Of a stretch of DNA of 64,000 bases, positions 14,346-64,000 are shown in pieces (the stretch's first letter is position 1; every line of letters starts with the position of its first letter). This DNA comes from Bryobacterales bacterium (GTDB lineage: Bacteria > Acidobacteriota > Terriglobia > Bryobacterales > UBA6623). The stretch lies in NCBI GenBank assembly GCA_965217195.1, contig CBDCHL010000001.1, positions 182,175 through 246,174 of the forward strand. The letters run 5' to 3'. The translations under genes were made by a program, and so were the position numbers. The notes under the pieces were generated by a model, which saw only the letters and a program-made list of their open reading frames with translations, did not search any database and was not told the origin of the DNA.

Positions 14346-14868
14346 CGGTGATGGTCGCTGTTGAGAAACGCGGGAAGCGTTCCGGGCGCGTTCGCATGTC
14401 CGTTATTCCAGACTTCAAGAAGGTGACGATCGACAGGTTTCTTGCCCAGAACGTTGTTCCCGGCTCGACCATCTACACGGACGGTCTGAAGACCTTTACC
14501 GCCCTCGAAGAGGCCGGCTACAAACACATCTCTCGTCCGCAACCTCACCGGACTGACTTGCGGAAAGGCGCCAAGTCGGTGGTGCCGCTGGCGGATCGTG
14601 CCATTGGCAACCTGCAACAATGGCTGACCGGAACGTACCACGGCGTGAGCCGCGCTCAGCTCCAGGTTTACCTCGATGAGTTCGTGTTTCGACACAACCG
14701 CCGCAAGACCCCAATGGCAGCTTTCCAAACCCTCCTCGGTCTGGGAACCCAACACGCTCCTACGCCTTACGCCCACATCCGCCGCGCGCGTGATCTGGAC
14801 AAGACGCGATGACCTCCACCCCAACATCTAGTACCTTGCTGAAACAACCGGATAAGCAGGAGGTAGCT
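14346..14868 (+). mobile_element. 5'-truncated IS1595-family element (3' 523 bp only; carries the C-terminal transposase ORF 14348..14812)
   Basis: Near-identical to 29438..29960 of the full copy, including the right terminal sequence ..tagtaccttgctgaaacaaccggataagcaggaggtagc. Homology starts abruptly at about 14346. Confidence 0.85.
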
Positions 14869-15044
14869 AGGGCGGATCCACAAGGCCGTGTGCCACATTA
14901 CCTCGCTGAAGGGGCGTGTCCGGATTTCCGTTGAAACTCGCGGCTCTCCGGTGGATCTAGTTTACGCCGCTTTGGACGTTGGCGAGGAGGTTCCCCGCCG
15001 TTTTTCAAGCAGCTCCAATAACTTCGGCAAATCCTTATAACCCT

Positions 15045-28900: not shown

Positions 28901-29957
28901 CTCCTGCTTATACGGTTGGTTCAGCAAAGCACCAAGATGTAGGGTAGGGCGTGGCCCGGCCGCCGTTTCCGAAGAGTCTGCGTCAGTTTCAGGCGGAGTT
29001 CGCGACCGAAGAGGCTTGCCAGAAGTACCTGGCTGCTTGTCGTTGGCCCGACGGGTTCCTTTGTCCTCAGTGTGGGCATCGGCAGGCCTACATTCTCGAG
29101 CAGAAACGACGGTGGCAGTGCGCGGCGTGTCGACACCAGGTCTCGTTGACCTCGGGAACGGTGCTCCACAATACGAAGACTCCGCTGATGGTTTGGTTCT
29201 GGGCCGCGTACCTGATGACAACTGATAAGCGAGGTGTGTCGGCGGTGCTACTGCAGCGTCAGCTCGGCCTGTCGCGTTACGAAACCGCATGGATGATGCT
29301 GCACAAACTTCGCCGGGCCATGGTGAACGCAGCTCGCGAGCCCTTGCACGGAGAAGTAGAGGTCGATGACACCTGGATTGGCGGCCCGCAAGCAGGTTTA
29401 CGAGGCAGCCGACAACTGAAGGGGCGCCGCGCGGCCCTTGTGATGGTCGCTGTTGAGAAACGCGGGAAGCGTTCCGGGCGCGTTCGCATGTCCGTTATTC
29501 CAGACTTCAAGAAGGTGACGATCGACAGGTTTCTTGCCCAGAACGTTGTTCCCGGCTCGACCATCTACACGGACGGTCTTGAAGACCTTTACCGCCCTCG
29601 AAGAGGCCGGCTACAAACACATCTCTCGTCCGCAACCTCACCGGACTGACTTGCGGAAAGGCGCCAAGTCGGTGGTGCCGCTGGCGGATCGTGCCATTGG
29701 CAACCTGCAACAATGGCTGACCGGAACGTACCACGGCGTGAGCCGCGCTCAGCTCCAGGTTTACCTCGATGAGTTCGTGTTTCGACACAACCGCCGCAAG
29801 ACCCCAATGGCAGCCTTCCAAACCCTCCTTGGTCTCGGAACCCAACACGCTCCTACGCCTTACGCCCACATCCGCCGCGCGCGTGACCTGGACAAGACGC
29901 GATGACCTCCACCCCAACATCTAGTACCTTGCTGAAACAACCGGATAAGCAGGAGGT
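28901..29957 (+). mobile_element. IS1595-family insertion sequence, full length (about 1.06 kb) with imperfect terminal inverted repeats
   Basis: Left end ctcctgcttatacggttggttcagcaaagcaccaagatgt (28901-28940) matches the reverse complement of the right end, cctcctgcttatccggttgtttcagcaaggtactagatgt (29917-29957). It is inserted 27 nt after the AKR stop. End coordinates are good to about +/-4 bp. Confidence 0.85.
28951..29905 (+). pseudogene. IS1595-family transposase, disrupted by a 1-nt insertion at about 29580
   Basis: N-terminal zinc-ribbon CPQCGH..CAAC and the DDE region are split between ORFs 28951..29649 and 29534..29905. This copy reads ggtcttgaagacc where the truncated copy at 14486 reads ggtctgaagacc. 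Confidence 0.85.
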
Positions 29958-30047
29958 AGCAACATAGACAGCCTCATCAGGCTGGGCATCCTCTGGAGGG
30001 CGGTTGCGTCATGCTTCGCGGCATCCGTTTGGCTCAAGGAGGATGCC

Positions 30048-31181: not shown

Positions 31182-31348
31182 CCAGAGTGCTTTACTCCTG
31201 CTCCCGCTCCCGGAACTCCTCGTACCAGTTCTGCACGGTTCGGATGCGATCCCGCGGCGCCTCGCCGATGGTTTTCACCGTGACGAAGCGCTGACTGTCG
31301 AGCGAGACGTCGGAGCAGGCGATTCTATTGGTTCCTGATCGGCCCTTA

Positions 31349-32441
31349 CTGAGTCTCGCATAATATACTGTCAATCGAGACAAAGAGAAGACTGTTTCCA
31401 GAAAGCGGTAATCAAGCGCGGTTTGCGGCGCATTCGCCGCAGCGCTTTGCGGGCGCGCTCGTCGAGTTCCCAGTAGTCCTTCGGGCAGACGTTGGGCAAC
31501 TCGTGCTGCTTCCAGTACGCCCAAATGTATTCCACCGGGTTCAACTCCGGCGCATAGGGCGGCAAGTACTCCGTTGCGATGTGATCCTCGGAGAGCTGGA
31601 TGAACTCCCGCACCAGGCGGCTGCGGTGCGCCGGCAGCCGGTCCCAGACGATCAGCAGTGGGCCGTCGATGTGGCGCACCAAAGCCTTCAGGAAGTCGAT
31701 GACCTCCAGCTCGCCGATCGCGCCGGGATAGAGCCGGAAGTAAAAGTTGCGCAACGTCAGCCCGGCCGACACCGACAGCTTGTCCCAGTTGAAGTTGAAC
31801 TCCAACACCGGTGTCTCGCCGCGCGGCGCCCAGGTGCGGCAACGATGCGGCTTCTGACTCAATCCGCTTTCGTCGATGAAGACGATCGTACGTTCTTCTT
31901 TGCGGGCTTTTTTTTAATGGCCGGCCAAGTCTTGCGCTGCCAGCCGCGGATGGCCTCTTCGTTGCGCTCCCGCGCTTTGCCGACGGGCCGTTGCGGGCTC
32001 CAACCGAGCGCCCGCAGGATCTTCCAGACATGGCCCTCGTGATAGCGCACGCCGAACTCGTCTCCGATCAGACGAGCGACCCGCGGACAGCTCCACAGCG
32101 GCGTCGGGAAGCCGTGCGCCTCGGGGCCTTCCAGCAGCAACGCCTCGAGGCGTTCGAGCTGCGCGGCGTCCAACAGCGGCTTACGGCCGGCGCGGCCGGC
32201 CTGGCGCAACCCGGCTTCGCCGTCACGCCGGTATCGTCGCAGCCACTCGCTGACGCTTTGCCGCGCGACCTTCAATCGCCTCGCTGTCTCGGACTGACTA
32301 CAGCCTTGCTCGACCAACCGGATCGCTTTGAAACGGCGCTTCTCCAGGGCCTCGAAATCCCGCCGTACGCCTTTTGTATTTCCCATACATACAAAGACGT
32401 ACGTACCCCAAAAAGGTGTCACTTTATTTTGCGAGATTCAA
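31349..32441 (-). mobile_element. IS630-family insertion sequence, copy A (1,093 bp), flanked by TA on both sides
   Basis: Ends ctgagtctcgcataata.. / ..tattttgcgagattcaa form imperfect IRs (14 of 17). TA at 31347-48 and 32442-43. Matches 53367..54459 in inverted orientation; I saw one mismatch, in the IR. Confidence 0.9.
31371..32422 (-). CDS. IS630-family transposase (two ORFs joined by a putative -1 frameshift on an A8/AAG run, T-run 31908-31915 on the + strand)
   Basis: ORF 31859..32422 (HTH domains: ..SQSETARRLKVARQSVSEWLRRY..) and ORF 31371..31862 (DDE: ..LIVWDRLPAH..YLPPYAPELNPVEYIW). A -1 slip yields ..IKKKARKEERTIVFIDESG, restoring the first Asp. Confidence 0.85.
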
Positions 32442-32537
32442 TAGGGCCGACAACAATCTACATCCACCGTGAGAGACTGACTTTTTTCAAGCAGTAGATA
32501 GCCCACCGATGTAACAATCGGGGACAATGGAAGCGGA

Positions 32538-39186: not shown

Positions 39187-39931
39187 ATGACGGGACGCGA
39201 TGAAACCCTCGCGGCCTGGCCCCGCAGCGAAGAAGTCGTCCGCAGCCAGATCGCTGAATACTACGGCCTCGTCACGCACATGGATCACGAGATCGGGCGA
39301 ATTCTCGAAGCGCTGGAGAAGACCGGCCAAAAGGAAAACACGATCATCATCTACGCCGCCGACCACGGGCTGGCGATCGGCAGCCACGGCCTGCTCGGCA
39401 AACAGAATCTCTATGAGCACAGCACGCGCGCTCCCTGGCCTTTGTGGGCGGCAGCATCCCGCAAGGCCGGTCGTCCGAAGCCCTGGTCTACTTGTTTGAC
39501 ATCTTTCCGACCATTACCGAACATCAACTCGCCTGAAGGCGTCGAGGGTGAGAGCCTGGCGCCCCTCTGGCGAGGCGAGAAAACCGGCCTGAGGGACTCG
39601 CTGTTCACCGCGTATGAAGAAGTCATGCGGGCGGTGCGCGACAGCCGCTGGAAGCTGATCCGCTATCCCCACATCAACAAGTCGCAGTTGTTCGACTTGG
39701 CGAACGACGCCGGCGAGATGAATGACCTGTCGGCCGACCCGGCGCAGGCCGAACGGCTCCCAGGCCATGACGACCCTGCTTGCCGACTGGCAGCAAAAGG
39801 TCGGTGACGAAACGCCGCTGGTCTCCGCCGAGCCCCAAGACGAAGCCACCGACCTCACCGGCCGAGAGCGAACCCCCGATCAGCACCAGCCCGACTGGAT
39901 CCTGGAGAAGTATTTCTCAAAGACCGAATGA
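39187..39931 (+). pseudogene. Sulfatase (arylsulfatase family) C-terminal remnant with at least 3 frameshifts
   Basis: ..IAEYYGLVTHMDHEIGRILEALEKTGQKENTIIIYAADHGLAIGSHGLLGKQNLYEHSTRAP, then ..LVYLFDIFPTI.. in another frame, ..GESLAPLWRGE.., and the tail ..LLADWQQKVGDETPL.. in ORF 39722..39931. The catalytic N-terminus is absent. Confidence 0.75.
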
Positions 39932-43065: not shown

Positions 43066-44043
43066 CTAAACAGCGCACAACTCGAACTGAATCCATTGTG
43101 CCTGCTGCGAGTGCCACCATCTGTGAAAGGCGCCCGAGCGTCTCGTAGCTGAATCGATGATCCGCGCGGGAACAACCACCCGCAGCGGGTCCACGTCGAA
43201 TGGATACGGCTTCAACGCGATCCGACGGGCGTCGGCGGGCCGCACCTCAATTGTCACCCTGTCCATCCAGCTTGCACGAGGGACTTCCAGCAGGTCGAAT
43301 GGATGTTCACCAAGTCCCGTGGCTTCGCCGGACAAGGGCGGGATGTGTGGGGAACACAACGACAACGATAGCCCATCGAGGAGTTGAAGCAGGCGCACAT
43401 TCGGTTTCAGGTTTTCCGGGTCGACCCACGATGCGGTGACTGGGTTCCCCCGAAGCCGGGTCGAGAAATCGGCCTGCTGCGCTTCGAGATCAGCGACAAA
43501 CTTGCGGGCTTCGTCGATAGATCCCCCGACGAGCTTTTCGGGCGCACGCTTCCAAAACAGGGGATGAAGAAACGCCGGATCGGGGTCACGTTTGGACCTA
43601 GCAGCGTAGAGCCAGTAGGCATGAAAGCTGATCAGCAGACTGACATAGGGATGCTCCTCGCTGAAACGGGGAATGCCCCGCTGCCAGCGGTCCATCCCCT
43701 CCTGTTGGTTCTTCAGCACCTCGGCAAGATCCAGCGGAAGATCGTCAAGACCCCCTAGCTCTGGAATGGCCTCCCATTCCCACCAGCCGTTGTCGTGTTC
43801 AGCAATGGCCAACACCGTCTCCGCACAAAGCTGCTCAGGATCGTGCGCATGGGCGAAGTGTCCGGGAGCGGCAAACTGATCATTTCCCCAGTGGGCCGCC
43901 AGATACCCAGCGACACCCCCGTGATCCGGCTGACTGACCAACCAGGTATAGTTGTCGCGGTGAGTTTTCAGCACTGCACTTGACTCCTTTTCCGATGGTG
44001 GACCGTCCAATTCTACCGTTTCGCGGATAGCTGTCGCGAACAA
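43066..44043 (-). CDS. Hypothetical protein, DUF3891-like (HD-related motif HDNGWWEWE)
   Basis: ..WLVSQPDHGGVAGYLAAHWG..VLAIAEHDNGWWEWE.. resembles DUF3891 as I recall it. Start (TTG 44043) uncertain. Confidence 0.45.
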   Translation of the reverse strand: MFATAIRETVELDGPPSEKESSAVLKTHRDNYTWLVSQPDHGGVAGYLAAHWGNDQFAAPGHFAHAHDPEQLCAETVLAIAEHDNGWWEWEAIPELGGLDDLPLDLAEVLKNQQEGMDRWQRGIPRFSEEHPYVSLLISFHAYWLYAARSKRDPDPAFLHPLFWKRAPEKLVGGSIDEARKFVADLEAQQADFSTRLRGNPVTASWVDPENLKPNVRLLQLLDGLSLSLCSPHIPPLSGEATGLGEHPFDLLEVPRASWMDRVTIEVRPADARRIALKPYPFDVDPLRVVVPARIIDSATRRSGAFHRWWHSQQAQWIQFELCAV

Positions 44044-44167
44044 TCGATGTCACAAACTATGACATTTTTTGTCCCCAGGTGCTTGAGACGGCTCGGGTTG
44101 CCGTCAGACGGACCTCGTGCTGAGGGATCCCTCACCGCCGATTGTCGAGTGGGAAATCATTTCTCGA
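44039..44167 (+). repeat. 130-bp structured repeat, copy 1 (inverted relative to 56422..56551)
   Basis: About 88% identity by eye to the reverse complement of 56422..56551. Contains ATGTCA-n7-TGACAT, the palindrome TGAGGGATCCCTCA, and a GTCGAG..CTCGA hairpin. Confidence 0.85.
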
Positions 44168-46763: not shown

Positions 46764-47177
46764 AAGAACCCCAATCAGGATGACCTGACAACTTAACCAG
46801 GATTTCCCTGGCACTGTGACAGTATACAGCCACGCCGCAACGAATACTACGTGTTTTCGCGCTGAACCCTGCACATCACCTCCCCCGATAGGCCCCAAGC
46901 CCTGTCCGTCCGCTCTCAGGCAGTGATTGAGCGGGCTGAACGGCGCTCCGGCCGACACCTCTCCATGCGAAACCTTTTCGGAACCAAAAGCTGTTGATCC
47001 TCGTGCAGGCAACGCTACCCGCTCGGCAATGGCAGCGCCCAGATCCGACTTAGCATGCCGCCAAACAGCCCGCGGTTCAGATGCCCCTCGGCCCGCAGCA
47101 GCCACCTTGAGTGCTTTCACACCCGCATAAATAAAGGCGTCCGAGGCAGTCGAAAGGTTAGCCGAACCGAGGCTAAA

Positions 47178-48234
47178 GTGGGAATCTGGGCTAAGCTAAA
47201 GGCATTGTCAAGGCTGGAATCAGCGGCTATTTTTGTTACCTTCGGCGCCCTCGTGTGCGTAGTGCCGGGCCACTCGGCCGAGAAGCAGACCCTGCCTTCA
47301 TTCCGCGACATCACCGACGAAGCCGGCCTCGCTTACAAGATCACTTGCGGAGATCCAGTCACCAAGTCTCTGCTCGACGTCAACGGGCAAGGCGCCTGCT
47401 TCCTCGACTACGACGGCGACGGGCGTCTGGACATCTACCTTGTCAATGGATCGTCGCGCTCCCTCGATCTTGCCGGCAATCCTCCCCATGACTACTTGCT
47501 CAAGAACCGAGGGGACGGCACATTCGCGGATGTCACAAAAGGCGCCGGCCTCGGGGACACAAATTGGTCGAGCGGCTGCGCTGTCGGCGACTACGACAAC
47601 GACAGCGATCCGGACCTCTATTTGACCAACTATGGGCCCAATAAGCTCTACCGCAACGATGGCGGAGCTTTTCGAGACGTGGCGGAGAAAGCCGGCGTCG
47701 CCGGGCCGGAACGGACACCCCCAAAGTGGAGCATACGACGGCCAGCAGGATCTGCTTTATCTGAATAGCGGAGACGGTACTTTTCGTGACGTTAGCGCCA
47801 CGGCCGGCATCATCCAAGAAGAGCCGGGCCATGGCTTCGCCGCGGTTTTCTCTGACTACGACGACGACGGCGACCAAGACCTCTACGTCGCGAACGACTC
47901 GGGGCCGAACTTCTATTACGCAAACAACGGTGCCGGGACCTTTGAGGACATCAGCTGGGAATCGGGCGCAATGGTCAATGAGCATGGGGAGCCTGAAGGC
48001 TCGATGGGCCTCACGGTCGGCGACTACAACAACGACGCGCGGCTCGATATCTTCATCACGAATTTCATCGAGCAATCCAACACGCTCTACGAAAACGACG
48101 GCGACAACATGTTCCTCGACCAAACGACCAGCCTGGGCCTCGATCCGGTGGGGTTCAACTATAGCGGGTGGGGCACGAAGTTCATTGACTTCGACAACGA
48201 TGGCCGGCTGGACCTTTTCATTACCAATGGACAC
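47178..48234 (+). pseudogene. CRTAC1/ASPIC-UnbV family FG-GAP repeat protein, 5' part (also frameshifted near 47730-47745)
   Basis: Signal from GTG 47178. Repeats ..FLDYDGDGRLDIYLVNG.., ..VGDYDNDSDPDLYLTNYGPNKLYRNDG.., ..FSDYDDDGDQDLYVAND.., ..VGDYNNDARLDIFITNF.., ..FIDFDNDGRLDLFITNGH. Family similarity stops after ..ITNGH (48234). Confidence 0.75.
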
Positions 48235-48442
48235 ACAGATGAACGCCTAGGCCTGCCCAGCCCCATAGCGCAAGACCACAAGAAAGCAGTCCCCGCGGAA
48301 GGGCCCTGTTTTCCATGGCCGTGCCAAAATGTGGCCAAGAAAACTTCAGGCCGGACAGAACCGCTGAAATAAGTCCGCGGTGGAAGCGGCGCGGGGCAAG
48401 CCCAAATGAGGCTCCACCACACTACCGCTCGGCCCCGGAAGG

Positions 48443-49003
48443 CTATTCCAGAGGCGGTAAGGGTTCAACCCGAAGCGCCTGCCCCTCGACCGCCAGATAG
48501 AACTTGCCGGCCGCCACCGCGTCGTGCCGGTCTTCCCGGCCGGAAGGCCAGCGAATGCCAATGTCCGCCGAGGTGGTATCTCCCAGGCCCACGTGGACTC
48601 GCAGGTCGTTGCTCGATAGGTAACTGTCGCTGCCCCGCACCTCGAAAACGCGCTGCTCGCCCCCGGCCGCGACGACAATTTTGGCGCCAATACCGTCTCG
48701 GTTGCTCGCCACCCCCTGAGTTCGAATCGCGAGCCAGTTCCGGCGGTTTCCACCGCTGTTCAGCAGAAAGGTGGGAATGTCGTTCTTGTTGATCACGAGA
48801 ATGTCTACGTCGCCGTCGTTGTCAAAGTCGGCGAAGGCGGTGCCGCGGCCCACGCGATTCTCAACCTTCCGCATGCCGACCGAGTTTGAGACGTCCACGA
48901 ACCGTTTGCCCGCGCTATTGCGCAGCAAGTAATTCGGCTGGGCATAGGTGTCCGCCGGAAAGCGCTTCTCCAACACGTTGGCCAAGTTGGACGGAACGGG
49001 AAC
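48443..49003 (-). pseudogene. CRTAC1/ASPIC-UnbV family protein, 3' part, on the opposite strand
   Basis: VPVPSNLANVLEKRFPADTYAQPNYLLRNSAGKRFVDVS..GRGTAFADFDNDGDVDILVIN..NWLAIRTQGVASNRDGIGAKIVV..RGSDSYLSSNDLRVHVGLG..IRWPSG (UnbV/ASPIC C-terminal domain). It starts where the + strand part ends. Confidence 0.75.
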
Positions 49004-49379
49004 CGAGAACGCGCAGGGGGCGGACGGGCGTAGCGCCCGCTGGCAGAACCCCATCGAAGCCCACGTGAAAACGCTCAGCTCCGATGACATGCGCAACAGC
49101 GCCTTTATGGCCTGGACCTATCAACTGCCCTTCATGAGGGATAAGAAGAGGGGTCTGGCGAAGCTCGTCGGCGGCTGGAGTTTTTCCGGCGTCTTCCGGG
49201 TTGACCAAGGACGGCCTCTCAACATCTTCATGGCGAATGATATGGGCGGCATTCTGTTCAATCCCCAGAAGCGTCCCAATCGTGCCGGCGGCGAGGGGAC
49301 AACGAGCGGCAGTTTCGACCCCAACGCCGATCGCTACCTCTCTTCGTCCGGGTGGACCGATCCGGGTTCGTTCAACTTT
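49004..49379 (+). pseudogene. Fragment resembling the C-terminal barrel region of a TonB-dependent receptor-like outer membrane protein
   Basis: ..WTYQLPF..LAKLVGGWSFSGVFRVDQGRPLNIF..FNPQKRPNRAG..SFDPNADRYLSSSGWTDPGSFNF. No N-terminal plug and no terminal Phe strand. Confidence 0.35.
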
Positions 49380-49382
49380 GAG

Positions 49383-49539
49383 ATCACCGTCGTTGTCGAC
49401 GTCGGCGAAGGCCGCGCCCTCCGGGGCTGGACAAACCGAGGAATCGGTTCGCGGCAAGCGTGGACGCTCACGCGTTGGCTTGCCCAAACAGGGATGCCAC
49501 GGAGCAGAGGAGCAGAAGGAAGACTTGAGCTTTGCGCAT
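49383..49539 (-). pseudogene. N-terminal stub (signal peptide plus first FG-GAP motif) of another secreted repeat protein, frameshifted
   Basis: MRKAQVFLLLLCSVASLFGQANA from ATG 49539, then a stop. ..GAAFADVDNDGDL follows in another frame. Confidence 0.3.
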
Positions 49540-49625
49540 TACAGGAGACCTCTCTAGACCCAGCAGAAAGAAGGCAGACTGCACCCGTCGGCCCTCAAAT
49601 ATATCCCAGGGCGACCCCGAGGTAA

Positions 49626-53230: not shown

Positions 53231-53366
53231 GGGGGCGACAATTGAAACGACGAAACAAGGACCTTGAGGCGACGATCCACGACACCGCGCGGGGGTTGGT
53301 GTATCGGATAGAGAAAAATCCCGACGAAGGCGCTGTCAGGGGACCAGAAGGGCAGGAGGAGGCTTA

Positions 53367-54459
53367 TTGAATCTCGCAAAATAAAGTGACACCTTTTTGG
53401 GGTACGTACGTCTTTGTATGTATGGGAAATACAAAAGGCGTACGGCGGGATTTCGAGGCCCTGGAGAAGCGCCGTTTCAAAGCGATCCGGTTGGTCGAGC
53501 AAGGCTGTAGTCAGTCCGAGACAGCGAGGCGATTGAAGGTCGCGCGGCAAAGCGTCAGCGAGTGGCTGCGACGATACCGGCGTGACGGCGAAGCCGGGTT
53601 GCGCCAGGCCGGCCGCGCCGGCCGTAAGCCGCTGTTGGACGCCGCGCAGCTCGAACGCCTCGAGGCGTTGCTGCTGGAAGGCCCCGAGGCGCACGGCTTC
53701 CCGACGCCGCTGTGGAGCTGTCCGCGGGTCGCTCGTCTGATCGGAGACGAGTTCGGCGTGCGCTATCACGAGGGCCATGTCTGGAAGATCCTGCGGGCGC
53801 TCGGTTGGAGCCCGCAACGGCCCGTCGGCAAAGCGCGGGAGCGCAACGAAGAGGCCATCCGCGGCTGGCAGCGCAAGACTTGGCCGGCCATTAAAAAAAA
53901 GCCCGCAAAGAAGAACGTACGATCGTCTTCATCGACGAAAGCGGATTGAGTCAGAAGCCGCATCGTTGCCGCACCTGGGCGCCGCGCGGCGAGACACCGG
54001 TGTTGGAGTTCAACTTCAACTGGGACAAGCTGTCGGTGTCGGCCGGGCTGACGTTGCGCAACTTTTACTTCCGGCTCTATCCCGGCGCGATCGGCGAGCT
54101 GGAGGTCATCGACTTCCTGAAGGCTTTGGTGCGCCACATCGACGGCCCACTGCTGATCGTCTGGGACCGGCTGCCGGCGCACCGCAGCCGCCTGGTGCGG
54201 GAGTTCATCCAGCTCTCCGAGGATCACATCGCAACGGAGTACTTGCCGCCCTATGCGCCGGAGTTGAACCCGGTGGAATACATTTGGGCGTACTGGAAGC
54301 AGCACGAGTTGCCCAACGTCTGCCCGAAGGACTACTGGGAACTCGACGAGCGCGCCCGCAAAGCGCTGCGGCGAATGCGCCGCAAACCGCGCTTGATTAC
54401 CGCTTTCTGGAAACAGTCTTCTCTTTGTCTCGATTGACAGTATATTATGCGGGACTCAG
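53367..54459 (+). mobile_element. IS630-family insertion sequence, copy B (1,093 bp), TA-flanked; the target reconstructs to CTAG
   Basis: TA at 53365-66 and 54460-61. Flanks ..gaggct/TA/gtggtt. Near-identical to copy A in inverted orientation. Confidence 0.9.
53386..54437 (+). CDS. IS630-family transposase (ORF 53386..53949 and ORF 53946..54437 joined by a putative -1 frameshift at A AAA AAG, 53893-53901)
   Basis: Proteins identical to copy A. The slippery run of 8 A followed by G lies in the overlap of the two frames. Confidence 0.85.
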
Positions 54460-55250
54460 TAGTGGTTAATGATGAAATTCCGGATCGTGAGTCCGGCGGT
54501 GTCAACTCACTGGGCACGAAGCAACGGAATCAACCTCATTGATTCACCTTGCCGAAGACATTGCAGCCTTCGTCCCCCGACTCCTCACGAGAAGCCGAAT
54601 ATGGTGATCGGCTCGTTCTGAAGCGCACCAAAACTGGGCCGCCTGTCTCCGCCGGTCGGAGCTTACCGGAGCGATGGCCGGTGGACGGATTTCCGCCGCC
54701 TCCTCCGGCTCCCGAACATCCAGCGCTTGATTCGACGATCGTGCTTGACGAGCGTCGCGATCACTGTCAGCAAAATGCCGACCAAGGCCAGATCTAGAAG
54801 CTGGTAGGGCATAGGACTCCGACGCTTCCGGGGTTAATGCAAGCGGAAGCGCCGGCAGACGGAGACAAGGCGATAGAACGGAACAGTAAATAGACCTAGT
54901 GACTGAGCCATACGAAGATCCGGATGGCATGCGGTTGCCCCACGCGCCACATGCGGGAAACAGAAGCGCAAGGCTCGCCTTCGTCGTCTGCCAACCGGTC
55001 CGTCTTGAAACGAACGCTGTCAGCCGATCCGACATCCACCCATACGGCGGTGACGCCGAAACCCTCGCGCAATCACTCGTTGCAATCCAGAAAGCCGCTG
55101 CACTGATCATCCGCGAGATTCAACCCTCTCGCGCGCACCCGTCGAGTTCTCTTGGCCCGGTCCGGAGCGTCACCTCTCCCTCAAGCGACCGCCGTGCACC
55201 GGATCATTGTTTGGCGCGTCGCAAGCTCAACAGTTACCTAGATCGACATG

Positions 55251-56348
55251 CTACGAATCGGGACGGTGACTCCGTGCCGGACTCGCTGCCGTGGGGCCGC
55301 TCACAGGTTTGAGTTCGGCGGCATCGAGCCCTTGGAGGACTTCTTCGTCCGCTACCCGTTGACCCGTCCATCCCGTGTTTGCCGTCAGGTCTGTGATACG
55401 AGTCCGGACGACACAGAGCTGGATTCGGTCATTCACAGCCTGCCCCAGTTGTTGTTTGCAGCCGATATAACGTTCGGTCGTCAGCACCGAGGCGTGACCG
55501 AGCAGAAACTGGATCTGCTCCAACTCTCCACCCGCTTCATGACACAGCCTGGCGCAGGTGCGTCTCAGGTCATGGGGAGAAAGCTTCTGAATCCCCGCTC
55601 GCTGGGCACACTGCTTGACGACGTACCAGACCACATTCTGCGTCAATCCATGTCCCCACATCACGCCGTTCTTGCGGATCGCCCGGAACAGCCGGCCTTC
55701 CGTGATCTCCGCCGAGCAGACCCACTCATCCACCGCCTGCTTGACCCAACCCGGCATGGGCACCGTACGCACGCGGCCTCCCTTGCCGATCAGGTCAAGG
55801 ATCACCCAGTGCTGCTCCCGCTGTTGGATCTGATCCACGTCCAATTCGACCAGCTCGGAACGTCGTAATCCGCAGCCGAGCAGCAGACCCAGCATAGCGG
55901 CGTCCCTCTTGCCCCGGAGCGTATCGGTGCTGACAGCACTCAGCAGGCGCTGACCCTCGTCAGAAGTGAGCCAGTTGCCCATACGGCGACCCAACTGCTT
56001 GACGCCGCGGACCCGTCGAATGCCCGCGATGAGATCCGGGCTGAGCAGGCCGCTGTCGGCGGCTTCGGTAGCAAGACGGCGAACAGCCGCCATACGAACG
56101 TTGATCGTGGCAGCGGCCAGACGCAGACTTTCCAGGCGGAGGCGAAAGCGGAGCACGACGGCACGGTTGAGAGCCAGTCGCGGCTCCGAACAGTACCAGG
56201 CGATGAACTCCTCGATGGCACGGCCGTAGGACCGGCGAGACTGCAGAGACCCGAGAGTGTTGAGGACGCCGGCCTTGGCCTGTTCGAGTTCGGGCAAGGT
56301 GGGAGATTTCCTCCGCCGACGAGTACGTCGATGAGTCGATTGATTCAT
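55251..56348 (-). CDS. Tyrosine-type site-specific recombinase/integrase (apparently intact)
   Basis: ..GCGLRRSELVELDV (box I Arg), ..GKGGRVRTVPMP.., ..LSPHDLRRTCARLCHEAGG (HxxR), ..LLGHASVLTTERYIG (catalytic Tyr). The C-terminal tail is about 55 aa longer than I would expect. Confidence 0.85.
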   Translation of the reverse strand: MNQSTHRRTRRRRKSPTLPELEQAKAGVLNTLGSLQSRRSYGRAIEEFIAWYCSEPRLALNRAVVLRFRLRLESLRLAAATINVRMAAVRRLATEAADSGLLSPDLIAGIRRVRGVKQLGRRMGNWLTSDEGQRLLSAVSTDTLRGKRDAAMLGLLLGCGLRRSELVELDVDQIQQREQHWVILDLIGKGGRVRTVPMPGWVKQAVDEWVCSAEITEGRLFRAIRKNGVMWGHGLTQNVVWYVVKQCAQRAGIQKLSPHDLRRTCARLCHEAGGELEQIQFLLGHASVLTTERYIGCKQQLGQAVNDRIQLCVVRTRITDLTANTGWTGQRVADEEVLQGLDAAELKPVSGPTAASPARSHRPDS

Positions 56349-56421: not shown

Positions 56422-56551
56422 TCGAGAAATGATTTCGCACTCGACAATCGGCGGTGAGGGATCCCTCACAAAGAGGTCAGACTGACGGCAACCCACGCCG
56501 CCTCAGGCACCTGGGGACGAAGAAATGTCATAGTTCATGACATCGATTGTT
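56422..56551 (-). repeat. 130-bp structured repeat, copy 2, directly upstream of the integrase gene on its coding strand
   Basis: The reverse complement aligns with 44039..44167. Contains ATGTCA-n7-TGACAT, a perfect 16-bp palindrome GTGAGGGATCCCTCAC, and the hairpin TGTCGAG-13 nt-CTCGACA. Ends 74 nt before the integrase ATG (56348). Confidence 0.85.
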
Positions 56552-56751
56552 ATCACCAGCTATCATCTGTCAGTACAACCACGGCGTGTTCAACGAGGGT
56601 GTTTCCACACAGGGGCCATGCCCCGCGCCACATCGGCACCTACGAAAAAGCCGAGCCTCGCTAAGCAAAAACCATAGTGATGCGCGGCAACGTCACGCGC
56701 AAGGGACCAAGAACACACATGGTCACGGTGGAGTTGTTGCCACGCGGCCCG

Positions 56752-57147
56752 TTACTGCTGGTCCGCTCTGCCGAGCGTTTCGGCTTCCATCACCCGGGCG
56801 CCGCGCATGATGCCCCTGAAGGAATAATTCGCTTCGTGGCAGGCGTACTCTCGTAGACTCGGTTGTCCGTTGCCGGCCAGACGTAGCAGCACAGGCGGTC
56901 GAGCACAAATTTGACGAACTCGGTTACCGGTTGACCTGATATCTCTGGTTCCGCGGCAGTGACGCCCGTGCCTGTATGCGCGTACTTCACGCGCGCCAGC
57001 GTCCATCCCGTGTGTTCGATGGCGTTGCGGCTTTCGACCAGGCGTCCGGGACCAGGTGCGGGTGTGCCGCACATATTCCGCCAGCAGCGGGTCCGTGGCC
57101 TGAAGGGCAGCGATGCCCGCTTCAAACGCACCCTGCTGCTTGAACAC
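56752..57147 (-). pseudogene. Unidentified gene remnant spread over at least 2 frames
   Basis: ..FKQQGAFEAGIAALQATDPLLAEYV.., ..VTEFVKFVLDRL.. and the tail ..YACHEANYSFRGIMRGARVMEAE.. sit in overlapping minus ORFs 56752..57147 and 56790..57236. No family assigned. Confidence 0.3.
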
Positions 57148-57351
57148 TTGACGAGCTCAAACGCCTCATTGCCGCGATCACCAACAAGCGCGACCGCGCC
57201 TTGTTCTGATCGCCTATCGGCACGGGCTCCGAGCAAGCGAAGTCGGCCTCTTGCAGCTCCCTGACCTTGACCTCAAGCGCCTGACCATCCACGTGCACCG
57301 GCTCAAAGGATCCCTCTCCGGCGTCCATCCCTTGCAGCCGGACGAAGCCTA
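57144..57351 (+). pseudogene. Tyrosine integrase remnant, 5' half (1-nt deletion near 57206; interrupted after ..HPLQPDEA)
   Basis: ..DELKRLIAAITNKRDRALF / LIAYRHGLRASEVGLLQLPDLDLKRLTIHVHRLKGSLSGVHPLQPDEA (box I region). The N-terminal domain is missing. Confidence 0.75.
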
Positions 57352-57421
57352 AGCCCTCAATAAAAGGGTTTGCAGGATCATCTTGCTAGGATGAAATCCT
57401 GATCCAACCTAGCGGAGTTCC

Positions 57422-58582
57422 GTGATGAAGAAGCACCTTGTCGTTGCCCTTTCTCTTGCCGCCCTCGGCGCGGTCGCCCTCGCCGAGCAGAATGCGCAAA
57501 CCGTCAAAAACGTTGTCGTCTACCAAGAGAAAGGTCGCTTCGGCGGGTGGCCTGCCAATCACGGGATCTGGTCGTGGGGGGACGAAATCGTGGTCGGCTT
57601 CGAGGCCGGACACTATAGCCGCAGCGAGCGCGGCCACGCGATTGACTACAACCGCCCGGCCGAACACTTCCTGGCGCGCAGCCTCGACGGCGGCGAAACC
57701 TGGAAACTCGAAAAACCCGCAAGCCTGCTGCCCCCGCCGGCAACGAAAATGGCCAATGTACCCACCGAGGAAGGCGGCAAACCGGCCGGCGACTGTCCCG
57801 GCGGCATCGACTTCACCCACCCCGACTTCGCCATGACGCTTCGCATGGCGAGCAATCAAAACGGACCTTCACGTTTCTACTACTCCTATGATCGTGGAAA
57901 GTCGTGGACCGGCCCGTTCAAGTTTCCCGACTTCGGCGAAGCCGGCGTCGCCGCGCGCACCGACTATCTAGTCAACGGAAAGCACGACCTGACGGCTTTC
58001 ATCACCCTTTCCAAGCCCAACGCTCGTGAAGGCCGTCCGGCATGTGTTCGTACGCGCGACGGAGGAAAGACCTGGCAAATCATGGCGTTCATCGGCCCCG
58101 AGCCGCCCGGCCGGGACTACGCCATCATGCCGTCGTCGGTTAGGCTGTCCGAAAACAGCATCTTGACCGTCTTTCGGAGGCGGCATTGGATCGAAGCCTG
58201 GCGTTCCGACGACGGCGGTCGCTGGTGGTCGTTCAAGAATATTCCGGTTCCCGATACCGGTCGCGACAGTCCGCCCAGCATGGTGAAGCTCCGCGACGGT
58301 CGTCTCGCCGTTACCTACGGATATCGCGCGGAACCCTACGGGATTCGAGCCCGGCTGAGCTCCGACAACGGCGAGACCTGGAGCTCGGAGGTTATCTTGC
58401 GTCAAGACGGGGGCAACTGGGACCTGGGGTATCCCCGCACCGTTCAACGCAGTGACGAGAAACTCGTGACCGTCTACTACTACAACAACAATGCCGACGC
58501 CGAACGCTACATCGGCGGAACCATCTGGGACCCAGGGAAGGGAAGCGGCTTGGCGCGGGAGGCCGGGGCGGCGTCGCGGTGA
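57422..58582 (+). CDS. BNR/Asp-box repeat protein (exo-alpha-sialidase / GH33-like), secreted
   Basis: Signal MMKKHLVVALSLAALGAVALA. Asp-boxes SLDGGETW, SYDRGKSW, TRDGGKTW, SDDGGRWW, SSDNGETW. Confidence 0.75.
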   Translation: MMKKHLVVALSLAALGAVALAEQNAQTVKNVVVYQEKGRFGGWPANHGIWSWGDEIVVGFEAGHYSRSERGHAIDYNRPAEHFLARSLDGGETWKLEKPASLLPPPATKMANVPTEEGGKPAGDCPGGIDFTHPDFAMTLRMASNQNGPSRFYYSYDRGKSWTGPFKFPDFGEAGVAARTDYLVNGKHDLTAFITLSKPNAREGRPACVRTRDGGKTWQIMAFIGPEPPGRDYAIMPSSVRLSENSILTVFRRRHWIEAWRSDDGGRWWSFKNIPVPDTGRDSPPSMVKLRDGRLAVTYGYRAEPYGIRARLSSDNGETWSSEVILRQDGGNWDLGYPRTVQRSDEKLVTVYYYNNNADAERYIGGTIWDPGKGSGLAREAGAASR

Positions 58583-58707
58583 CGAAGTCGGCCGCCCGGG
58601 AAACCAACCCGCAACGAACCTCAACCCGTCCTCGGGCCCCCGCCAACCAGAATCATAGCCCCGAGCGAAAGCGACGGGCCATAGACCTCAATTCCGCTCA
58701 AAGCCTA

Positions 58708-58866
58708 CCTGCGCTCCCGCAAGCTCGACTCCCCTGTCCTGTTCTTGAGCAACCGTGGCGACCCCATCAGCCGCAAGACCCTCGACTGGCTCATCAAGAA
58801 GTACGGGCGGCAAGCGAAACTACCTCCTGACAAGTTGCACTTCCACGCCCTCAAGCACTCCATCGA
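58708..58866 (+). pseudogene. Tyrosine integrase remnant, 3' continuation (truncated before the catalytic Tyr)
   Basis: (Y)LRSRKLDSPVLFLSNRGDPISRKTLDWLIKKYGRQAKLPPDKLHFHALKHSI (box II HxLKHS). In frame with the 5' half if 57352..58707 is removed. Confidence 0.75.
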
Positions 58867-59280
58867 TCGCATGAACAATCCCGCGCCCCAGCGTGAACAC
58901 GGCCTTCCTGAGTGCACGGTAGTAGCTCCGGGCGGTCTTGGCTGAGGCTTGATCTTTGGGCCTGGACCCCGCCAAAAGTAGGATGGAATGGTTGCATCAC
59001 AGCCGTGGACGGGCTACGCTACCAGGCGGCGAGACCCAAAACTGAAACCCTTCCTCAAATGCTTCGCCCCCTCCTGCTGATCGCTTTCTTCCTGGCCTTG
59101 GCATTTGCCGGCACCGTTGACTCACATTCGAGAACTGGGAAACTTTTCTCCCCGACGGCGGCTGATTCGGCCACGTAAAGCGCTAGGATTGCAACCAGGA
59201 ACACCTCCCGCCGTTCGCTGTCTCGCTCTGTTCGGATGGCACCGATGTTGCCGAACAGCAGATGCTTCAAGTTTGATCCT

Positions 59281-59316
59281 GCGCCGCCTGCGCCGCCTGC
59301 GCCGCCTGCGCCGCCT
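59281..59316. repeat. Tandem repeat, 9-bp unit GCGCCGCCT x4
   Basis: Read directly. Encodes (APP)n in ORF 59236..59448, or poly-Arg on the other strand. Confidence 0.9.
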
Positions 59317-61478: not shown

Positions 61479-62171
61479 TCACCGAAGCCCGTCAGCCACC
61501 TGGCCCCGCCCCTTGCCGGTGAGAATCTTGTTCACCGTTAGCCCCCACCACTGTTTCCCCCGCCGGGGTTTGATGCCGTCCTCGTTGAGCTGGCGGGCGA
61601 TGCGGTCGAACCCCATTCCCTGAGCTCTCAGCGCTTTCATGCGCTCTATCACGGCCTTCTCGCCGGTATAGTAGCCGTACGGCTTTGCGCCTTCACACCG
61701 GCCCGTACGCGCCTTCTTACGGAGCCGTGCGGCGCGTAGCTTGGTGACAATCATGGCCTTGTCGTATTGTGCGACCGCACCCATCATCTGGCGCAACAGT
61801 ACCCTGGTCGGGTCGTTGGCCATCAGGTCGGGCTCGGCAACCGAAACGAGCGTGAATCCGTGCTTTGCAAGGTCGGCAAGGATGGTTTCCTGAATCAGCA
61901 AATCGCGTGCGAGCCGGTCAAGACGCTCGACGATGATGGCATTGACTCCGTTACCGTGAAGGGCTTCGAGTAACTCGGTGAAAGCGGGACGGGTCGTAGA
62001 TTCAGCCGCTCCGCTGACGCCTTCCTCCCTGAAAATCCGCACCACTCGAATGCCGTTCTGCTCCGCGTATTGGCGAATCGCGGCACTTTGTCGGCGGAAA
62101 CCGTCACCTTTGAGCTGACTTCGTCCGCTCACCCGTACATAGCCGAACGCTCTGCTCACGGTCCGAAGCAT
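61479..62171 (-). CDS. Serine recombinase (resolvase/invertase-type catalytic domain)
   Basis: Start at ATG 62171: MLRTVSRAFGYVRVSGRSQ (catalytic Ser motif), ..IIVERLDRLARDL.., ..RAARLRKKA.GRCEG.KPYGY.. and a C-terminal HTH-like ..GFDRIARQLNEDGIKPRRGKQW. Confidence 0.8.
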   Translation of the reverse strand: MLRTVSRAFGYVRVSGRSQLKGDGFRRQSAAIRQYAEQNGIRVVRIFREEGVSGAAESTTRPAFTELLEALHGNGVNAIIVERLDRLARDLLIQETILADLAKHGFTLVSVAEPDLMANDPTRVLLRQMMGAVAQYDKAMIVTKLRAARLRKKARTGRCEGAKPYGYYTGEKAVIERMKALRAQGMGFDRIARQLNEDGIKPRRGKQWWGLTVNKILTGKGRGQVADGLR

Positions 62172-62223
62172 AACGCGGCATCGCACGACTGTCAATAACT
62201 ATTCTTAAGATAAATAATCAACA

Positions 62224-62804
62224 TTGAAAACAACGGACTTACGCCAAGGCCGTTGCCAAGGAACCGCCACCGTGGACTTGCTCGCGCAAGCCCTGGCGCG
62301 GCGAATCTACCACGTCACGCCGGAGCCGGAGCGTGACGCGAAGAAAAAGCGGCTCGCGAAAATCCTGTCGGTTTCCGAGCGCACCATTCGCGACTGGCTC
62401 TCGCGCATCGACAAGGACTCGAAAGAGGCGCGAAACAAGCGGATCTTTGAGCTTTGGCTGGCTTGTTGGACACAGCAGCAGATCGCGAAATCTGTCGAGG
62501 TTGATCAGAAAACCGTTCACAACGTTTTAGGAGAAATGGCAACCTGCCAAAACTCCTGAGATCCGCTGCCGAGCATTCCGACTTCGAGCCGGAGCTTTAC
62601 GACGTTTGGAAGCAGCAGAGCAAGTCGAACGGAACCGGCCACTTCGGGAATTCAGAGGTTCGCTGGCTCGACAACCTTCTTTACCGCTATACGAAGACAT
62701 TCGGCGTAGTCGTCGATCCATTTGCCAGCGGCGGCTCCACCGTGGGAGTGGAGGAGGGGAGGCGCGGTTCCCGATCGGAACGCAAGGCGCTAATACTAAT
62801 TTAG
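62224..62804 (+). pseudogene. DNA methyltransferase-like gene (HTH/ParB-like N-terminus plus N6/N4 MTase motif I), frameshifted near 62530-62545 and C-terminally degenerate
   Basis: ..ILSVSERTIRDWLSRI..KRIFELWLACWTQQQIAKSVEVDQKTVHNVL.. then, in another frame, ..PELYDVWKQQSKSNGTGHFGNSEVRWLDNLLYRYTKTFGVVVDPFASGGST (DPFxGxGxT). Confidence 0.6.
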
Positions 62805-63905: not shown

Positions 63906-64000
63906 GTGAGCATCACTCAACTCAAAACCCGGCGAGTTTCGGCCGGGATTCCCGGCCAACTGGTTTGTCAACGGGCAGGTTTGCGACGTGCTCGGCTCAG
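63906..64000 (+). CDS. XRE-type HTH protein, 5' end only (runs off the window)
   Basis: GGAGG lies 8 nt upstream of GTG 63906. VSITQLKTRRVSAGIPGQLVCQRAGLRRARLS resembles ..lr..R...gls...la...g(v/l)s...(l/i)s. Confidence 0.35.
   Translation, partial: MSITQLKTRRVSAGIPGQLVCQRAGLRRARL

Follow-up and report, generated by a model that had tools for sequence, protein, structure and literature searches.

A BNR-repeat gene inserted between 5-bp direct repeats in a decayed tyrosine recombinase gene of a Bryobacterales genome

Transposase-free elements such as mobile insertion cassettes (MICs), miniature inverted-repeat transposable element (MITE)-like elements and Tn3-derived inverted-repeat miniature elements (TIMEs) are defined by terminal inverted repeats (TIRs) and occur in several copies, and pdif/Xer modules need XerC/XerD sites of ~28 bp at both ends. 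Pieces of chromosome can also be captured at DNA breaks. In Streptomyces ambofaciens, repair of I-SceI breaks by nonhomologous end joining (NHEJ) inserted pieces of the cell's own DNA, 30 bp to 18.8 kb long, and involved fill-in synthesis (PMC5869714), and alternative end joining (A-EJ) in Escherichia coli is cited in that article, from Chayot et al. 2010, as a further case of genomic-fragment capture at breaks. Conventional NHEJ by Ku and LigD is over-represented in Acidobacteria (PMC7719229). Here we describe a locus in a 64,000-nt stretch of a Bryobacterales bacterium genome (assembly GCA_965217195.1, contig CBDCHL010000001.1, positions 182,175 to 246,174), which we call the window, where a gene for a BNR/Asp-box beta-propeller protein lies inside the remnant of a tyrosine recombinase gene. 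We consider it probable that this arrangement arose by the one-off, non-homologous capture of a chromosomal fragment in the recombinase gene.

Junctions of the insertion in the recombinase remnant

Judged from its profile and alignment matches, the interrupted gene is a decayed member of a subgroup of short (~190 aa) FimB/FimE/XerD-like tyrosine recombinases. Its left part (57144..57360, plus strand) corresponds to aa 13-85 of the family and its right part (58697..58865, plus strand) to aa 84-139, ending in the HxxK(R) box ..HALKHSI; both were placed by tblastn and blastn, the PF00589 profile and protein alignment. When joined, the two parts match PF00589 with E=7e-20, and a protein search with the joined fragment returned 1,019 homologues, mostly complete proteins of ~190 aa, the best of which (P0001) is 91% identical. 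Only aa 13-139 are kept. The missing N- and C-terminal parts, the latter being the ~50 aa that carry the catalytic Tyr, were found neither in the window nor in three metagenome contigs that share the locus (L088-L090), and the recombinase forms no complete open reading frame (ORF) with a catalytic Tyr. We compared the remnant with the recombinase genes of locus L001 (encoding P0001) and loci L002/L003 (encoding P0002). It has lost 1 nt after 57205 (TT, against TTT in L001 and L002) and carries a TAA stop at 57350-57352 in place of the AAA (Lys) of homologues. Its divergence from L001 shows a dN/dS of ~0.07 at a dS of 0.45, so most of this divergence predates inactivation. No synteny links the recombinase neighbourhoods of L001 and L002 with the window.

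The original prediction for this locus spoke of an integrase gene split in frame. The profile match of the joined frames bears out a tyrosine-recombinase frame on both sides of the insert, but what remains is a fragment with a frameshift and a stop. The frame is kept across the insert, but this is a one-in-three coincidence that has no functional meaning, since the recombinase is a truncated pseudogene. A separate peculiarity belongs to the ~190-aa family throughout: Lys replaces the second catalytic Arg of the HxxR box (HFHALKHS; window 58848-58865), which is unusual for tyrosine recombinases.

Alignment at the DNA level places both junctions exactly. With P0001/L001 and P0002/L002 as references, tblastn and blastn give a left high-scoring segment pair (HSP) at 57149-57360 and a right one at 58697-58865, and these two HSPs share exactly 5 nt, CTCAA, corresponding to subject nt 550-554 of the L001 gene segment. 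The intact order, as aligned with L001 and L002, is GAC GAA GCC AAA GCC CTC AAA GCC TAC; in the window the left junction reads GAC GAA GCC TAA GCC CTC AA|T... and the right one ...CCG|CTC AAA GCC TAC. The repeat, which falls in the Leu-Lys codons of ..KALKAY.., thus stands at 57356-57360 and again at 58697-58701, and the intact gene has a single copy. Between the repeats lies an insert of 1,336 bp (57361..58696, plus strand; 1,341 bp when measured repeat to repeat) that starts TAAAAGGGTTTG.., finishes ..CAATTCCG and comprises the BNR gene plus its own flanks on either side. Reconstructed in silico, the uninterrupted target site is ..GAAGCC[T/A]AAGCCCTCAAAGCCTAC... By our calculation, in which chance extension is summed over both sides, an apparent overlap of at least 5 nt at a random blunt insertion has P ~0.005, and the 5-bp repeat is therefore more than chance.

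These junctions replace an earlier version, in which a 7-bp AAGCCTA target-site duplication bounded an insertion of 1,356 bp. Both copies of AAGCCTA exist, at 57345-57351 and 58701-58707, and they share the same codon phase. However, the left copy is recombinase sequence (GAA GCC TAA) at which there is no junction, and the right one (AAA GCC TAC) starts at the last base of the right CTCAA. AAGCC occurs three times within the intact recombinase sequence GAAGCCAAAGCCCTCAAAGCCTAC (codons E-A-K-A-L-K-A-Y), and the left 7-mer arises solely through the A-to-T change that turned a Lys codon, AAA, into the stop TAA. The nine bases beyond the supposed left junction (AGCCCTCAA) continue the match to the intact gene, at a chance probability of ~4e-6, and belong to the recombinase rather than the insert. 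The protein alignment agrees. The restored sequence ..PDEAYLRSRK.. lacks the KALK-type residues that 12 of 12 aligned intact homologues have between PDEA and AYLRSRK, where the consensus is HPLQPDE(A/V/S)-K/R-A/I-L/V/I-K/R-A/S-.. and the closest homologues read ..PDEAKALKAYLRSRK..; the original prediction had itself named such extra residues in an intact homologue as evidence against its join. A first hint of the gap was that the 119 residues of the joined fragment span 130 positions of the PF00589 profile. We regard the 7-bp version as virtually impossible.

Ancestry of the insert and tests for mobile-element hallmarks

The one gene between the recombinase halves, as predicted, encodes a BNR_2/Asp-box beta-propeller protein of the sialidase superfamily (57422..58582, plus strand). 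The protein has 386 aa when read from GTG, or 385 aa from the ATG at 57425, with a signal peptide and five readable Asp-boxes of the S-x-D-x-G-x-x-W type. It matches PF13088 with E=1e-15 (58 bits, cutoff 31.4) and PF02012 with 30 bits, and has 4,725 homologues at E <= 1e-20. The nearest solved structure is that of the uncharacterised Dfer_1899 (5hx0, E=2.5e-15); true sialidases match at only E~1e-4 over ~80 residues. The reading frame is intact, and its dN/dS of 0.058 against the orthologue in L010 indicates purifying selection across the divergence from orthologues. At the 3' end of the gene (58562-58582), GAG stands where orthologues stop with TAG (..GLAR*), which adds 7 residues (..GLAREAGAASR*).

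Elsewhere, relatives of the BNR gene sit in ordinary chromosomal settings. The closest in species-representative genomes come from Bryobacterales metagenome-assembled genomes (L008-L010; 90-91% aa and 84% nt identity). These relatives place the source in the Bryobacterales (Acidobacteriota), and its own genome is absent from the species-representative set. In the closest orthologues (L004 and L010; 87-91% aa identity), the BNR gene directly follows an amidase gene, and the upstream sequence of L010 is shared by L008 and L009. More distant paralogue groups each have stable neighbours of their own. The window contains neither an amidase gene nor a second BNR copy.

The left flank of the insert adds to this picture. 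It contains TGCTAGGAT (57384..57392, plus strand), an extended -10-like motif of the form TGnTAnnAT that is conserved upstream of orthologues, and, 3' of it, a GGAG ribosome-binding site at 57413-57416. The 14-nt sequence CTTGCTAGGATGAA (57382-57395) recurs at the equivalent upstream place in the orthologues of L007, L014, L016, L018 and L019, the sole extra match of the left flank in the window and loci L001-L087, and kindred TGnTAnnAT motifs precede the BNR gene in L004, L010 and L011. This conservation marks the left flank as the gene's own upstream region and not a transposon end, and the motif is a putative promoter. A scan for the sigma-70 promoter consensus found no match, and no plus-strand terminator follows the BNR gene. 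The 3' flank (58583..58696, plus strand) is C-rich and T-poor (A30 C47 G27 T10) and resembles nothing else found; the sequence 3' of the BNR stop is different in every genome compared. Together, these comparisons with orthologues show the chromosomal ancestry of the insert.

The insert lacks the hallmarks of mobile elements, in line with the predicted absence of a transposase, TIRs and an attC site. The ORF and profile scan found no tnpA or tnpB in it, and no ORF in it other than the BNR gene matches a family. When the two 70-nt ends were aligned in inverted orientation, the best score was 13, which 308 of 1,000 shuffled controls reached; anchored comparison of the ends in all six boundary registers gave 5-13 matches out of 30, with no TG..CA termini in any. 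Neither end folds into a significant hairpin or attC-like structure (left z = -1.7, right z = +0.2). IS200/IS605-type (HUH) elements and PATEs have subterminal hairpins at both ends, insert 3' of a fixed 4-5-nt target and are present in multiple copies; here a weak hairpin (-9.1 kcal/mol, z = -1.7) stands 17 nt inside the left end, but it overlaps the conserved promoter-like motif, and folding at the right end is not significant. Neither insert end has a second copy in the window or in loci L001-L087 (0.94 Mb), and BNR orthologues elsewhere are not bounded by similar repeats. In JGI metagenome contigs, an exact 28-mer of the left flank (as a probe for the donor locus) and a degenerate 45-mer across the uninterrupted site (as a probe for an empty site) both gave 0 matches, and all exact copies of the BNR protein that a look-up returned share this island context. 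We do not regard the insert as a discrete mobile element.

A one-off pseudo-transposition, or a non-autonomous unit whose cryptic ends flank the BNR gene, could still be proposed, with a DDE transposase acting in trans and leaving the 5-bp duplication. The direct repeat lies exactly at the junctions, duplications of this length are typical of the Tn3, Mu, Tn7 and Tn402 families and occur in IS3, and the window and related contigs are rich in insertion sequences (IS) and rve-type transposases. Against this stand the missing TIRs and TG..CA termini, ends that do not recur, and a left end that is the BNR gene's native upstream region. In addition, the IS of the window are IS630-like, IS1595-like and Mutator-like, and none of these types is known to make 5-bp duplications. 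We hold transposition in trans to be unlikely.

Another possibility is site-specific integration in the manner of a cassette, in which a circular molecule carrying the BNR gene recombined at a CTCAA/CCTCAA core through a tyrosine or serine recombinase of the region. Integration of a circle at a shared core would place one copy of that core on each side, as observed. Recombinase genes lie close by (55251-56348 and 61479-62195), and the 3' flank of the insert has two further copies of (A)CCTCAA, at 58618 and 58685. However, there is no attC-like imperfect palindrome, no inverted half-sites surround CTCAA, and no RYYYAAC / GTTRRRY pair was found by eye in the 3' flank. In enrichment scans for ACCTCAA and AGMCCTCAAT, ACCTCAA came out at about twice expectation across the window, with no structural pattern and no link to gene boundaries. 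The neighbouring 365-aa recombinase (55251-56348, minus strand) is XerC/D-like and not an integron integrase, scoring 57.9 bits on TIGR02249 (cutoff 265) and 30.6 on NF011946 (cutoff 435). The BNR gene carries a promoter-like motif of its own, which genes of typical cassettes do not, and the analysis turned up no further unit of this kind. Cassette-like integration is improbable on this evidence.

There is a slim chance that the BNR segment is the first seen copy of a single-gene unit, free of transposase and TIRs, whose movement depends on an agent acting in trans. Such an agent could be a recombinase or nuclease with a CCTCAA-type core as its recognition sequence and a 5-bp duplication as its mark. 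If such a mechanism existed, it would bring ordinary genes of the chromosome, along with their promoters, onto mobile islands.

We rejected three further candidates. An integron does not agree with the lack of attC and of an IntI identity for the neighbouring recombinase. RNA-mediated (retro) insertion is excluded, since the insert has no tail and extends, with its promoter-like motif, beyond any transcript start. An origin from tandem recombinase copies by two deletions would be unparsimonious and need a chance 5-nt overlap. Joining the sequences outside the remnant, as a check for a single interrupted host gene, did not discriminate, since open frames arise everywhere in high-GC sequence.

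Of the origins first put forward for the locus, microhomology-mediated or illegitimate capture fits best, and a recurrent non-autonomous element or a cassette is not supported; the description of a passenger-only segment in a recombinase frame, with a short direct repeat on both sides, holds with CTCAA as that repeat. In the capture that we favour, the target would have been a short FimB/XerD-like recombinase gene in a strain-variable, mobile-element-rich region of a Bryobacterales chromosome. A single non-homologous insertion would have brought in 1,336 bp of ordinary chromosomal DNA, comprising the BNR gene with its promoter-like motif and ribosome-binding site, and duplicated 5 bp of the target, CTCAA. 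As to the molecular route, we infer either end joining or a microhomology crossover. A break with a 5-nt stagger may have been filled in and then end-joined to the captured fragment, or a circular fragment may have entered by a single crossover at a 5-bp microhomology; both routes would leave CTCAA on each side.

Several points weigh against capture. DDE transposition (Tn3, Mu, Tn7, IS3 family) also classically leaves a clean duplication of 5 bp. The window yielded no break-inducing agent, Ku or LigD, neither donor locus nor empty site came to light, and the direction and mechanism of the event were not directly observed. There is one instance only, about whose mechanism nothing statistical can be said. 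Furthermore, CCTCAAT at 58685-58691 repeats the left junction at 57355-57361, which simple fill-in leaves unaccounted for. This is part of a longer match, 11 bp inside the right end, in which AGACCTCAAT (58682-58691) agrees with AGCCCTCAAT of the left junction (57352-57361) at 9/10 positions. When the two ends were compared over 70x70 nt, 121 of 1,000 shuffles reached the score of this match, which could be chance or the scar of locally templated repair.

The surrounding strain-variable island

The first ~50 kb of the window are ordinary chromosome, with genes for threonyl-tRNA synthetase, peptidases and PSCyt/DUF1501 proteins alongside the IS; from ~50 kb onward come recombinases, small helix-turn-helix (HTH) genes and ORFs without assigned function. 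Here the BNR insertion is one of at least 4-5 illegitimate junctions within ~2.3 kb. Head to head with the truncated 5' end of the recombinase lies a fragment of an unrelated mobile-element gene that we call gene X (56790..57147, minus strand), which has a frameshift and lacks ~50 C-terminal residues. Its family, of 147-161 aa, has no Pfam domain, and homologues occur in conjugative and mobile-element neighbourhoods, near genes for a type IV secretion system coupling protein, ArdC, ParA, Rad52 and IS66. On the other side, the remnant ends at 58865 and a repeated motif, TCGCATGAACAATCCC... (58866..58903, plus strand), begins at the very next base. The abutment of gene X on the 5' truncation and the 3' cut at the repeated motif are neighbouring illegitimate junctions, and they speak in favour of capture.

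A second copy of the motif TCGCATGAACAATCCCGCGCCCCAGCGTGAACACGG (58866-58903), 84% identical, is present in the flanks of three of the four metagenome contigs described below (L088, L089 and L095). It lies ~122 nt outside the boundary at 56538 and marks the point at which L088 and L089 begin to diverge. In a scan, the motif at 58866-58903 appeared terminator-like on the minus strand.

Four ENA long-read contigs, from assemblies ERZ25068966, ERZ25766727, ERZ26167216 and ERZ25069191, share this part of the window. Three of them (L088-L090) were retrieved through a search with gene X and the fourth (L095) through an exact look-up of the BNR protein. From 56538 onward they are 99.9-100% identical to the window, L088-L090 up to its end at 64000 and L095 up to 62582, where the fetched locus stops. 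To the left of 56538 there are four versions of the flank, those of the window, of L088, of L089 and L095 (which agree), and of L090. L088 and L090 have a common stretch of 9,712 bp that starts inside a histidine-kinase ORF and includes a D5_N primase gene past the end of the window. All four contigs carry both junctions of the BNR insert base for base. The insertion predates the spread of this shared block, and these contigs are for that reason not empty sites.

The repeated junctions also bear on whether the split gene is an assembly chimera or sequencing artefact. The window and its relatives do resemble low-coverage long-read assemblies with many broken ORFs. However, junctions that are identical in the contigs of four other assemblies exclude an assembly artefact, and in a chimera one would not expect a single gene to continue past the insert with an overlap of 5 bp. 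An artefact can be dismissed for practical purposes.

The left limit of the shared block, at 56538, falls within a perfect palindrome, ATGTCAT-AGTTC-ATGACAT (56525..56543), 190 bp from the gene for the 365-aa tyrosine recombinase. The palindrome looks like a site-specific recombination site. An inverted, 87% identical copy of 143 bp around it (56422-56564) is found at 44026-44167, between DUF3891 and prenyltransferase-like genes.

Other features of the window were recorded in passing. The serine recombinase gene (61479-62195, minus strand; 238 aa, with a Resolvase and a partial Recombinase domain) adjoins a small HTH gene (62224-62559), and both are kept in all copies of the shared block. In a region without an assignable gene, the 9-nt unit CCTGCGCCG is repeated perfectly in tandem, in 4-5 copies (59278-59313). 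An IS630-like element of ~1.1 kb, which has two ORFs (the first encoding HTH domains) and what look like TA flanks, is present in two 99.9% identical copies (31345-32446, minus strand, and 53365-54479, plus strand). These are 99% identical to L009 8092-9211, from another Bryobacterales species whose BNR gene is only 84% identical, a comparison that suggests recent horizontal spread of the element. An IS1595-like element of ~1.06 kb occupies 28901-29958, with a partial second copy at 14348-14870; a 96% identical copy in L013 (7133-8193) sits directly at the stop codon of the BNR paralogue there. Many gene fragments and overlapping, frame-shifted ORFs crowd 39187-39807 and 47055-49625, among them a sulfatase C-terminus, FG-GAP/ASPIC fragments from both strands and part of an outer-membrane barrel protein. 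These may be either genuine pseudogenes or the product of long-read indel errors.

Comparison with known systems

Read as a capture, the locus would be a clean natural case in which a housekeeping-type chromosomal gene entered a strain-variable, recombinase-rich island together with its promoter and without a transposon of its own. It would also illustrate how illegitimate recombination can capture genes in Acidobacteria, where NHEJ is common. Being a single event without recurrence, donor locus or empty site, it establishes no new mechanism and opens no new question. The locus holds a lesson in method as well, in that direct repeats read from a split gene need checking against an intact homologue. 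Here an internal triple repeat and a nonsense mutation gave a false 7-bp duplication 9 bp from the real 5-bp repeat.

Each of the established classes of passenger-only insertion shares some traits with this one. Like MICs, MITE-like elements and TIMEs, the insert has no internal transposase and is flanked by a short target-site duplication, whose length of 5 bp fits the Tn3 family; unlike them, it showed neither TIRs nor further copies when tested. As in integron cassettes, including those inserted at secondary sites, one gene has been inserted as a unit, with a recombinase gene nearby. Here, however, attC, IntI and a GTT-type core are all missing, a promoter-like motif came in with the gene, and the insertion hit a coding sequence rather than attI. 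The insert resembles pdif/Xer-dependent modules in being a discrete gene module without a mobility gene of its own, but its two ends have only 5-10 nt in common.

The closest parallel is bacterial end-joining capture at double-strand breaks, as in S. ambofaciens (PMC5869714). There too, the inserts are endogenous, kilobase-sized and passenger-only, with no transposase and no specific ends, overhang fill-in can duplicate a few bases of the target, and dispensable, plastic regions are hit. The locus differs from those studies in being a natural event in an uncultured soil acidobacterium, in which neither the break nor NHEJ proteins were seen, and in that the captured piece is one complete, presumably still functional gene. 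Set beside these systems, the insertion adds a tidy but ordinary example to a known class of events.

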